Sequence record: SRR20825010_1237
Length of the DNA: 33,846 nucleotides
Direction: 5' to 3' (one strand)
Shown: in pieces, positions 26,167 through 29,738 of the stretch
Position numbering within the stretch: the stretch's first letter is position 1
Layout: each line of letters opens with the position of its first letter
Made by a program: the position numbers and the translations under genes
The notes under the pieces: generated by a model
Told to the model about the DNA's origin: nothing
Databases searched by the model: none
What the model saw: the letters and a program-made list of their open reading frames with translations, nothing else

Positions 26167-26213
26167 GCCGTTTGAACATAAGGAAATTGGCGGGTGATGA
26201 AACGGACAAACTT

Positions 26214-27362
26214 ATGAAGCGCGTTTTGTCTCCGCATCCTTATCCGCATTTGCGATGGGCTTTTGCGGTCATGCTGTGCATGGCCGTTCTTGTCATTGCC
26301 GCTCCACTGGAAGCTGCTGGCTTCACGGGCAAGTATAACGGGATTGCGAATGCGGCCGGTATGTCGCTTTCCATTCAGGAGATCGAGGGGCGTGTTGTCG
26401 GCAAGCTTACACTGGCTGATGCGAGAACCTATGCGCTGAACGGTGCCCGTAGTCAGCAGATTGGTGATGCGGTATCGGGCGCACAGGGCGAGTTGCGACT
26501 TGGTGGTGACCCCAAGGCCGTTGCCTTTTTTCGTTTAGAGAGCAGGCCTCTAGGCGTGCAGTTCCTGTTTATTCCCATATATTCAGATGGGCGCGCCGAC
26601 ATGAAGGCTGCTCAGGACTATTCATTCCTTGCAGAAGGTGTCGGTGTCGGGACCAAAGACCATGCGGTTGTGCGTACATCTGAAATCACAGATGTAGGAC
26701 TTTTGCGCTTTATCGACGAATACCGGCAATGGGCTCCGAAGGATCTGGCGCGGATCTATAATCAGTTGAGTGAAAGAGATAAGGGGCTCATCCAGCTATA
26801 CGATCATGCAAGTGCCGATATTCTCTGGCGGGTCTGTGAAAGTAATCCGCCGAATGAATTCGTGACACAAGCTGCGCTGGATGAGTTGCTCGACAGGCAA
26901 CAAACCGACTGCCCGACAGTGATGCCATTGGTACAACGGGTGCGGGCAGGGACGCTGTTTCCAGAATTTCTGAAGCGCGCTAAATATCAGTTCGAGATAA
27001 TCCGTGAGACAAGTCTATGTGACAGCGGAGAGTCCACACCGGCAAAATGCGCGGATGTGAGTGCTCTGGGGGCGCCACTGATGATGCATTGGCGTGGCAT
27101 TGTCGCCATCATGACGGCTATCGCGCCACTAGAAGAGATTGCGGAAGTTCAACCTGCACCTGATAAAAACGATGCGAGTGCGGTCATTCCTTTGCCGCCT
27201 TTGAGAGCAAGTCTGGCTGATGCTCCGAGGGAGCCTGTTACTCAAAAGGTTGTGGTAGGTAAAGAGACGTCCAAGACGACGAGGTCGTTAAAAGATGAAG
27301 GCCGCGCCATTGTTCGTGAACGACGTCGCGGCCTCCATCTACCATTGCGCGATCCGCGCTGA
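26214..27362 (+). CDS. Hypothetical secreted protein
   Basis: Signal peptide-like WAFAVMLCMAVLVIAAPLEA, beta-rich N-domain, helical domain with 4 Cys, low-complexity tail; start uncertain (26172 or 26214). Confidence 0.7.
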   Translation: MKRVLSPHPYPHLRWAFAVMLCMAVLVIAAPLEAAGFTGKYNGIANAAGMSLSIQEIEGRVVGKLTLADARTYALNGARSQQIGDAVSGAQGELRLGGDPKAVAFFRLESRPLGVQFLFIPIYSDGRADMKAAQDYSFLAEGVGVGTKDHAVVRTSEITDVGLLRFIDEYRQWAPKDLARIYNQLSERDKGLIQLYDHASADILWRVCESNPPNEFVTQAALDELLDRQQTDCPTVMPLVQRVRAGTLFPEFLKRAKYQFEIIRETSLCDSGESTPAKCADVSALGAPLMMHWRGIVAIMTAIAPLEEIAEVQPAPDKNDASAVIPLPPLRASLADAPREPVTQKVVVGKETSKTTRSLKDEGRAIVRERRRGLHLPLRDPR

Positions 27363-27366
27363 TGGA

Positions 27367-27792
27367 TTAGCCCACCTGCACCAGTTCGATGGCGAATGTG
27401 AGATCCTGTCCGGCTAGTGGGTGATTGGCGTCAAGACGAACTGTTTCATCGTTAAGTTCTGTCACCACGAGGGCCAGTTCACGTCCGTCCGGGCCGCTGG
27501 CGCTCAGGCGCATGCCGATTTCAAGTTCCATGTCGGCGGGCATTTCCGAGCGAGGTACGTCCTGGATCATGCGCGGATCATGCTCGCCATAGGCATCGGC
27601 GCAAGGGATGGTGAAAGTCTTTTTCTCGCCGACATTCATGCCCGTAACGGCGCTGTCGAAACCGGGAATAACCTGACCTGACCCGACCGTGAAGCCAATG
27701 GGTGTTCTGCCTTCGCTGGAGTCGAAGACTGTGCCGTCGCCCAATGTTCCTGTGTAGTGAACCTGCACGGTGTCGCCGTTTGCTGCTGCCAC
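27367..27792 (-). CDS. FKBP-type peptidyl-prolyl isomerase (SlyD/SlpA-like, no His-rich tail)
   Basis: GDTVQVHYTGTLGDGTVFDSSEGR, GQVIPGFD, DAYG, LDANHPLAGQDLTF; GTG start after GAAAGG. Confidence 0.93.
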   Translation of the reverse strand: MAAANGDTVQVHYTGTLGDGTVFDSSEGRTPIGFTVGSGQVIPGFDSAVTGMNVGEKKTFTIPCADAYGEHDPRMIQDVPRSEMPADMELEIGMRLSASGPDGRELALVVTELNDETVRLDANHPLAGQDLTFAIELVQVG

Positions 27793-27804
27793 GAGAGCCG
27801 CCTT

Positions 27805-27867
27805 TCAAATAAAAAAGGTCCTCAGAAACGACCTGAGGACCTGTTGGCCAATGCTTGACCCTAACAT
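27805..27867 (-). CDS. Candidate 20-aa leader peptide MLGSSIGQQVLRSFLRTFFI
   Basis: ATG preceded by TAGGT; reads through the terminator; its TGA overlaps the PPIase RBS (TGAAAGG). Confidence 0.35.
   Translation of the reverse strand: MLGSSIGQQVLRSFLRTFFI
27811..27842 (-). terminator. Intrinsic terminator in the PPIase 5' leader
   Basis: AGGTCCTCAG-GTCGTTT-CTGAGGACCT then TTTTTATTT on the minus strand. Confidence 0.75.
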
Positions 27868-27909
27868 TTTCAAACCTAAGGCGTCACCCCTTGAGGCAGA
27901 AAAGCTGAA

Positions 27910-27938
27910 ATATATGGCGGTGCGCGGCGCGAAACTAG
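27910..27938 (-). promoter_or_regulatory. Candidate promoter for the PPIase leader
   Basis: CTAGTT-N17-ATATAT, similar to the alphaproteobacterial CTTGAC-N17-CTATAT consensus. Confidence 0.45.
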
Positions 27939-28630
27939 AAGGCGCGGCGCCAGACCCTGCGTATTTTGGCGTCTGTTTCCGGCCCCAGATTGTGCCAAGC
28001 CGTTCGGTCGCGGGTTGCATCCACGATGAACATGCTGTCCGTCTTGCCAATATGGATGCTGAGATCGTTTAGAAGGCCAGGGGCAGTGGTGTTTGTGTTC
28101 ACACACCAAACATTGGGGGCAAGTTTGTATGCGGGCCCAAGCGACATGATCGCTTGTTCGAGGGGGCCGGCATAGCGCGCTTTGATATCCATAATGACGA
28201 TGAAATTAGCTGTTTCCGGCTGACGGCGTCGGTCTACCTGACCTTTGGCCGGGCCATACACCGTTTGGGGCTCGGTTTCGGGTTCCGTTGCAGGGGAGGT
28301 CTTCCGCTCAGGAGCATCCGCTTTAACTTCTGCAGTTCTATCTGCCTGGGAGACATAGTCTGGAGCGACTTTGTTTTGCGTGGAAGCGGTTTGAGTCTTC
28401 AAGCTCCCACCAAAATTTTCAGAAAATGTTGTTGTAGCACTGGCGTGAAGCCATTCGTCATCTTCTAACGCAGTGCCCTCTGGCGCAATAAGGCTTGAAG
28501 CGACGACACGCCCTTCGGCGATATAGCCGTTCATTGCCTCAAGCGAATATGGACCGTAGATCCGGTCACCATATTTCAGCAGCCATCTCGTGGCAGGTGT
28601 GTCGCTGGAGTTATGTTCAGATGCCGACAT
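27935..28630 (-). CDS. GYF_2/DUF4339 domain protein with a C-terminal alpha/beta domain
   Basis: WLLKYGDRIYGPYSLEAMNGYIAEGRV; T/P/E-rich linker; compact C-terminal domain. Confidence 0.78.
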   Translation of the reverse strand: MSASEHNSSDTPATRWLLKYGDRIYGPYSLEAMNGYIAEGRVVASSLIAPEGTALEDDEWLHASATTTFSENFGGSLKTQTASTQNKVAPDYVSQADRTAEVKADAPERKTSPATEPETEPQTVYGPAKGQVDRRRQPETANFIVIMDIKARYAGPLEQAIMSLGPAYKLAPNVWCVNTNTTAPGLLNDLSIHIGKTDSMFIVDATRDRTAWHNLGPETDAKIRRVWRRAF

Positions 28631-29661: not shown

Positions 29662-29738
29662 AAAAAAGTACCGGTCCTGTCATGTGGGGATGACAGGACC
29701 GGCCTCGACAGGACCAGCCTCTGGGGGGTGAGAGGCTG
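29662..29738 (-). ncRNA. Double hairpin with C-rich loops and T-run (terminator, possibly an sRNA)
   Basis: 8-bp stem with loop CACCCCCC and 13-bp stem with loop CCCCAC, then TACTTTTTT on the minus strand. Confidence 0.4.

Follow-up and report, generated by a model that had tools for sequence, protein, structure and literature searches.

On the minus strand of the window, the whole stretch of 33,846 nucleotides analysed here, a pair of promoter-like boxes, a terminator hairpin and a ribosome-binding site follow one another directly ahead of a gene for an FKBP-type PPIase. This cassette is kept in the window and in 47 of the 48 family loci that were fetched with a PPIase ortholog. In the reading that we favor, and to which we give about an even chance, the promoter-proximal intrinsic terminator would let only a fraction of the transcripts reach the PPIase gene and would also stop the transcripts that arrive from upstream. 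The element would be a sensor-less leader terminator that throttles, perhaps conditionally, the transcription of the PPIase.

The gene upstream of the element (27935..28630, minus strand; stop codon TAG at 27937-27935) encodes 231 amino acids and, by the list of open reading frames and its translation, combines a GYF-like N-terminus with a conserved C-terminal domain. The match of the N-terminus to Pfam GYF_2 is weak (E 0.0017, 18.5 bits, under the 25.8 cut-off). The PPIase gene (27367..27792, minus strand; 141 amino acids, GTG start at 27792) follows after an intergenic gap of 142 nt. Its product is an FKBP_C domain protein (Pfam E 1.7e-25, 89.6 bits against a gathering score of 21.1) and is SlpA/FkpB- or SlyD-like. 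The nearest NCBIfam models are those of SlpA/FkpB and SlyD, each scoring under its cut-off (PRK15095, 86.3 bits against 125; PRK10737, 80.3 against 174), and by these cut-offs the protein is assigned to neither equivalog. A query of genome contigs with the PPIase returned 80 loci, the best four of which (70-78% identity) came from Parvibaculum assemblies. The family referred to throughout was defined from the family of one of these four best matches and comprises 73 genomes, relatives of Parvibaculum. PPIase orthologs are present in 48 of the 73 (E <= 1e-30), none of them with internal stops, and homologs of the GYF-like gene in 70. The 48 ortholog loci were fetched and the 260 nt lying 5' of each start codon were cut out. 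Alignment A2 has 48 rows, and alignment A1 includes the four closest relatives. The compared orthologs are 58-85% identical as proteins. In 47 of the 48 family loci the PPIase is the direct neighbor of the GYF-like gene and runs in the same direction, the exception being L126, where the PPIase lies elsewhere. The 47 cassette loci are interrelated and probably go back to one ancestor, so that numbers of sequences are not numbers of independent events, and that they all have promoter and terminator in the same order may reflect inheritance and not selection.

The hairpin AGGTCCTCAGG-TCGTT-TCTGAGGACCT occupies 27816..27842 of the minus strand and is followed by the T-run TTTTTATTT at 27807..27815. 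The terminator scan assigned 11 pairs to 27842..27816, six of them G-C, with a loop of 5 and the tail TTTTTATTTG; it listed 8 terminator-like sites in the 4-kb region, compared to 4.8 +/- 2.4 in shuffles. The fold of the 161-nt stretch reaches -59.4 kcal/mol (z = -3.3). The free energy of the hairpin is -18.3 kcal/mol in the window, and the family median is -21.0 (-10.3 to -28.9 among 48 sequences). In A2, 97.7% of 528 cells are paired in the hairpin, against 89.3 +/- 0.7% in shuffles, none of the 500 shuffles being as high, and controls with slid partners are paired at 34-74%. Compensatory changes are frequent, seven of the 11 hairpin pairs having been altered on both sides. RNAalifold recovers the terminator helix and no other conserved helix. 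A stem of 9-16 bp is present in all 48 sequences, and the 8 nt on its 3' side hold 3-7 T (median 6). Two features expected of an intrinsic (Rho-independent) terminator, a stem with a U-run and compensatory changes in that stem, were thus found, and the comparison argues that 27842-27816 is a real intrinsic terminator whose structure is conserved in the family. The frequent G-U pairs of the hairpin (columns 71-100 and 74-96, for example, have 10 each) and the variable length of its loop indicate an RNA structure of the minus strand, not a DNA operator. A CIRCE-like operator would have inverted halves at a constant distance and in strict Watson-Crick symmetry. A palindromic operator of this type was considered and rejected, as the center of the present repeat varies in length and the G-U pairs would be mismatches in DNA.

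The spacing on the 3' side of the hairpin bears directly on how the PPIase could be expressed. The run of six T (T6) ends 18 nt upstream of the GTG at 27792, and the ribosome-binding site GAAAGG, conserved in the alignments (GAAAGGC in the family), is found at 27801..27806. Within the window's clade (10 sequences) the stem end and the start codon are 23-28 nt apart (24 nt in L091), and the T-run and the ribosome-binding site occupy this gap. There is no room for a promoter in it, and therefore expression of the PPIase in this clade would need read-through. Over all 48 sequences the distance from stem end to start codon ranges from 23 to 97 nt (median 50.5), and in the clades with long spacers (41-97 nt) no conserved -35/-10 pattern of a second promoter was seen after the terminator. 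An earlier note on this DNA, all of whose quoted elements are indeed present in the letters where it placed them, had drawn attention to this terminator. Its existence is borne out by the scan and by the covariation, as are the 18 nt between T-run and GTG and the lack of space for a promoter behind it; its stem, given there as 10 bp, has 11 pairs in the scan.

The long-spacer clades show further structure of their own. Directly 5' of GAAAGGC, another G+C-rich helix, GCGCGG...CCGCGC, whose interior varies, is present in L106-L108, L110, L112, L113, L115, L117, L118, L120-L122, L127 and L128. In the same clades, pairing is also possible between the 5' segment CGAUGA and a U(C/U)AUCG that follows the U-run, and the terminator would then lie within a longer helix. 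The window's clade has neither of the two.

Upstream of the hairpin, the minus strand carries a -35-like box, GTGACG, at 27882..27887 (family consensus GGTGRCS) and a -10-like box, TAGGGT, at 27858..27863 (family TAnnnT). The spacer between them (27864..27881) is 18 nt of free sequence at a fixed length and contains the TG of an extended -10 (27866-27865). Promoter geometry predicts a transcription start 6-8 nt after the -10, at 27850..27852. In the 48 rows of A2, columns 6-11, which hold the -35-like box, are invariant or at least 90% conserved, and the same grade applies to the individual positions G6, G7, T8, G9, C11, T28, T31, A32 and T36. The G of the extended -10 is invariant and its T at least 90% conserved, whereas the 16 columns between the boxes are unconserved. 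The order in the 47 family loci is GTGRCS, a variable spacer of typically 18 nt, TGn-TAnnnT, an interval of 6-28 nt, the hairpin with its T-run, and the start codon. The layout that had been proposed for the window, an intrinsic terminator between a promoter and the ribosome-binding site of the PPIase, is accordingly kept in 47 of the 48 family orthologs. The interval from the -10 to the stem start has a median of 16 nt and is 9-10 nt in the eight sequences of the L102 group. A first regular expression matched 39 rows, with a hexamer spacer of 18 nt in 35 and of 17 nt in four (L082-L085). Two more loci appear in a second pattern table, L081 with 17 nt and L089 with 18 nt; in the former CG replaces TG, and in the latter the -10 ends in G. 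Six loci were placed by hand: L087, L090, L092 and L127 have a slightly different -35, that of L093 is poor, and L091 lacks the box.

With GTGRCS, 17-18 nt and TGnTAnnnT, the boxes have the make-up of an alphaproteobacterial sigma-70/RpoD-type promoter with an extended -10 (spacing of 16-19 nt, TGn). They resemble the Caulobacter RpoD consensus, which an extract of PMC8144410 gives as TTGaCgS for the -35 and GCtANAWC for the -10. The pair is weak against the E. coli consensus, with about 7 of 12 hexamer matches, and was not listed by an E. coli-style promoter scan; the case for a promoter therefore rests on conservation. RNAalifold predicted no conserved pairing over the boxes or the spacer in the family alignment, and so the boxes are not RNA structure. 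Hairpins that the eye can find inside the spacer of some sequences were discarded, there being no conserved pairing at that place according to RNAalifold. We infer from this pattern of conservation that 27887-27858 is an active housekeeping-type promoter. A regulon search with the motif GGTGRCS-N15-TGNTANNNT in five genomes gave six matches, four at the PPIase locus and two elsewhere in G038, and the reversed-motif control gave three. G026, in which the box ends in A, had no match. The box motif is essentially unique in these five genomes. An ATG (29 of 47) or TTG (6 of 47) is also kept 5-12 nt after the -10, about where transcription is expected to start (27849-27851 in the window, and the matching column of alignment A3). 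It may be initial transcribed sequence or, in distant clades, belong to a helix; the CGATGA / T(C/T)ATCG pairing may explain the conserved ATG there.

Other parts of the earlier note did not withstand the comparison. The promoter that it proposed, CTAGTT-N17-ATATAT (27910..27938, minus strand), overlaps the upstream stop codon, was not listed by the promoter scan and is not conserved, the region being gapped in three of the four closest relatives (A1); in L086 the conserved -35 box comes only 4 nt after the upstream stop codon. The conserved boxes are those at 27887-27858 instead. The leader hairpin GGTCAA-GCA-TTGGCC (27846..27860, minus strand), placed by the note ahead of the terminator, overlaps the conserved -10 and is not conserved: in 48 sequences standard pairs fill 53.3% of the cells against 52.2% in shuffles, and 148 of the 500 shuffles pair as well. 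The 20-codon uORF at 27867-27805 does exist as a frame, spans the hairpin and has a TGA that overlaps GAAAGG, yet it is not conserved as a coding frame. Its ATG (27867-27865) is an A joined to the TG of the extended -10, and the uORF start therefore probably lies upstream of the transcription start. The equivalent frame in 42 sequences has 1-59 codons and in many of them 2-9 (1 codon in L084 and L085, 3 codons in L111, L114 and L125, 59 codons in L113). Its first codon is CTG in 7 of the 42, and L081 offers no xTG. Its end lies often well before the hairpin and in other cases as far down as inside the PPIase gene, and the peptides are unrelated. The check for leader conservation that had been called for thus turned up no conserved length, end or peptide among the relatives. 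A second candidate for a mini-ORF, beginning at the conserved ATG/TTG (35 of 47), was also rejected, since its frames run over 2-45 codons and have no common end. Hence, a model in which a ribosome translating or stalling on 27867-27805 blocks formation of the terminator can appeal to the presence, span and stop of the frame in the window, but it requires a start that is probably not transcribed from the conserved promoter and is contradicted by the comparative data; we regard it as hardly tenable. In practical terms, a uORF that looks plausible can arise by accident from an extended -10 box. The 20-codon frame closes with a TGA (27805-27807) in frame with the PPIase GTG, which lies 12 nt downstream, and an 81-aa ORF at 28050-27805 is the same frame extended upstream.

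The linkage of the cassette to the PPIase gene was assessed at 23 fetched GYF-like loci, from the genomes without a PPIase at E <= 1e-30 and from G015, which has its PPIase at another locus. One of the 23, L149, lies at a contig end and has the cassette complete, together with the beginning of the PPIase. None of the 22 family loci that have the GYF-like gene and lack an adjacent PPIase contains the box motif or the CTTCAGG-type hairpin, and only one of them has a terminator-like site in the first 300 nt after the GYF-like gene. In all 22, a convergent homolog of ORF 26172-27362 (396 aa, no Pfam match) comes directly after the GYF-like gene (tblastn E 1e-14 to 2e-21). The absence of the cassette from every PPIase-less locus indicates that boxes, hairpin, ribosome-binding site and PPIase gene are one unit, and that the cassette belongs to the PPIase; it also speaks against the idea, raised earlier, that the hairpin serves only to end the transcript of the GYF-like gene. 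The locus is as such a presence/absence polymorphism (window 26172-28630; L129-L151), in which cassette and PPIase sit between two convergent genes and are wholly absent in 22 genomes. Outside the family, a terminator-like hairpin within 200 nt upstream was found for one of 76 orthologs (L069, a weak 6-bp stem), which marks the element as clade-specific and not a general FKBP leader. The strict scan for upstream hairpins missed L001 owing to a stem mismatch.

We then looked for a sensor, for further copies and for known families. The best overlapping Rfam hit in the window was RF02634, at 14.4 bits compared to a threshold of 100, and no family reached its gathering score, in agreement with the earlier statement that the element cannot be assigned to a known riboswitch or leader family. 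Eight family loci gave three weak Rfam hits, none at the element. RNAalifold predicted no riboswitch-like structure upstream of the stem and no antiterminator helix of a stability comparable to that of the terminator. Before synthesis of the 3' arm the RNA can fold only weakly, with a median of -4.3 kcal/mol against -21.0 for the terminator, and a self-contained RNA switch is therefore unlikely. Neither a conserved short ORF nor a mutually exclusive antiterminator helix, the two marks of a leader-peptide attenuator, was found in the family. The conserved single-stranded seed of a base-pairing small RNA is likewise missing from the aligned sequences, in which the 5' tail differs between clades and the loop is variable. 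That the leader senses translation, folding or cold stress, as had been suggested, is pure conjecture.

A covariance model, R1, was built on the transcribed part of the element. It matched the PPIase locus at 34.8-61.1 bits. Its weaker hits, at 27-39 bits, led in 16 of 16 fetched cases to one unrelated terminator after an ilvC-like gene, a name that we assigned from the translated sequence. Among the hits inspected, down to about 27 bits, there was no second copy of the element. The ilvC-like terminator, GGGGCCCTCCGCG...CGCGGAGGGCCC with a T-run, is conserved in sequence 3' of the gene in 16 family genomes (L152-L167; for instance, L157:701-765). In many cases, about 10-20 nt without any promoter-like motif are all that lies between it and the ribosome-binding site and ATG of the following gene. 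Its stem is about as conserved in sequence as that of the PPIase terminator, and the conservation of the latter is consequently no evidence for a specific binding factor. As the ilvC-like terminator abuts a next gene too, tight junctions of terminator and gene, and conserved stems, are not special in these genomes. Read-through from a terminator into the next gene may be common in the family, and leaky terminators within operons may be a general habit of these genomes that needs no special regulation.

The start site, the termination itself, the read-through and any regulation that we infer from these alignments would combine as follows. The sigma-70/RpoD-like extended -10 promoter at 27887-27858 would start an RNA near 27851. 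After about 9 unpaired nucleotides, the 11-bp G+C-rich hairpin would form together with the U-run, and most polymerases would stop after about 40-45 nt. The polymerases that read through would alone yield an mRNA with the GAAAGG ribosome-binding site and the FKBP-type PPIase frame. The hairpin would also end the transcripts that come from the upstream GYF-like gene. An element of this kind would count as an attenuator in the broad sense of the word: a leader terminator reduced to its minimum, in which aptamer, conserved leader peptide and competing antiterminator helix are all lacking. Its read-through would be either a fixed leak that sets a low level of PPIase, or tuned from outside; elongation factors, temperature or a cold-shock-family RNA chaperone are candidates for acting on the hairpin. 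Cold-shock-domain proteins are reported, in an extract of PMC9765468, to lower intrinsic termination, leader terminators and the one inside the metY-rpsO operon included. Their modulation of read-through at the PPIase leader is a conjecture by analogy. In its most specific form, the leader of about 43 nt would be a complete sensor-less device, in which a trans-acting cold-shock-domain chaperone or temperature decides on hairpin formation after promoter escape. We consider this form distinctly unlikely. Were it true, the supply of a folding catalyst would follow cold or slow-growth stress, and the PPIase would be under a dedicated, family-wide, factor-dependent antitermination switch. No published description of such a switch, or of the PPIase leader element, was found in the literature searched.

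The same observations can be read in other ways. The PPIase might belong to an operon with a leaky internal terminator, in which the boxes are inactive or minor, the GYF-like gene's promoter drives transcription, and the effect of the hairpin is to lower the PPIase relative to the upstream gene. The ilvC-like terminator, met in all 16 of the second-tier hits fetched and placed before a next gene with no promoter-like motif, provides a precedent for this arrangement; the poor score of the box pair against the E. coli consensus and the adjacent, co-directional genes in 47 of 48 loci are also in line with it. We nonetheless hold it unlikely. Boxes that stay 17-18 nt apart around a free spacer, across proteins of 58-85% identity and with no RNA structure over them, would be difficult to account for if they had no function, and the GYF-like gene has neither hairpin nor boxes at the loci that lack the PPIase (22 of 22).

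Two further alternatives grant the RNA a role of its own. The element could be an independent small RNA gene for a trans-acting RNA of about 45 nt, with the PPIase as a by-product of read-through. Promoter, short 5' tail, stable hairpin and U-run are the minimal layout of a base-pairing small RNA, and small RNAs derived from leaders are known in Alphaproteobacteria, rnTrpL being an example in an extract of PMC7968998. What makes this decidedly improbable is that the 5' tail, only about 3 nt long in the L102 group, is unconserved across clades, that the loop varies, and that the element matches no Rfam family, has no second copy (the covariance model finds the PPIase locus and, more weakly, the ilvC-like terminator) and was never seen without the PPIase. 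Alternatively, the hairpin could act after transcription as a 5' stem-loop that stabilizes the PPIase mRNA or modulates its translation, termination being minor. The stem of the L102 group begins about 3 nt from the predicted 5' end, the CGAUGA/U(C/U)AUCG pairing of the distant clades could close the 5' end into a long helix, and a pairing of CCUUUU with GAAAGG is conceivable in the window's clade. The conserved U-run right after the stem is, however, the signature of termination and not of a stabilizer; about 9 or more nucleotides would be left unpaired at the 5' end of most sequences, and the ribosome-binding site lies at very different distances from the hairpin, with 23-97 nt between stem end and start codon. 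This alternative, too, appears very unlikely to us.

The favored reading, a promoter-proximal terminator that limits the transcripts reaching the PPIase gene, can be set beside several known systems. Leader-peptide attenuators (the trp and pyrBI type; rnTrpL/peTrpL of Sinorhizobium meliloti) have the same order of promoter, short leader, intrinsic terminator and structural gene, and would likewise need read-through and be expected to yield a short terminated leader RNA. The PPIase leader differs from them in having no conserved frame, no comparable antiterminator and only about 3-20 nt before the stem. Riboswitch expression platforms also place a terminator in the 5' leader, whereas here there is no aptamer, no conserved structure upstream of the stem and no Rfam match at threshold. 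The terminators that cold-shock-domain proteins relieve (E. coli metY-rpsO, and the leader and small-RNA terminators on which CspD acts, as an extract of PMC9765468 describes them) are the same plain hairpin and U-run with no sensor domain. In contrast to these, the PPIase element comes directly after a promoter and precedes a single PPIase gene, a position particular to the family, and a factor acting on it is conjectural. Intra-operon terminators, of which the ilvC-like one in the same genomes is an example, share the position 10-25 nt before the next ribosome-binding site and a stem conserved in sequence. The PPIase element is set apart from them by the conserved box pair between the upstream stop codon and the hairpin, and by the presence or absence of the cassette together with the downstream gene.

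If confirmed, the element would be a clean minimal natural case, conserved in a family, of a promoter with a strong terminator right behind it, by which a single chaperone-type gene is gated. It would be of use for learning how the efficiency of intrinsic termination is set or modulated with no riboswitch or leader-peptide machinery, for annotating PPIase regulation in Parvibaculum-like bacteria, and as a compact part for genetic constructs. Were read-through simply constitutive, it would be an ordinary terminator that tunes expression. Elsewhere on the minus strand of the window, a second strong terminator-like site of 14 pairs followed by ACTTTTTTAA lies at 29670-29703, just downstream of a gene for a BTLCP-type transglutaminase-like protease (30629-29751).
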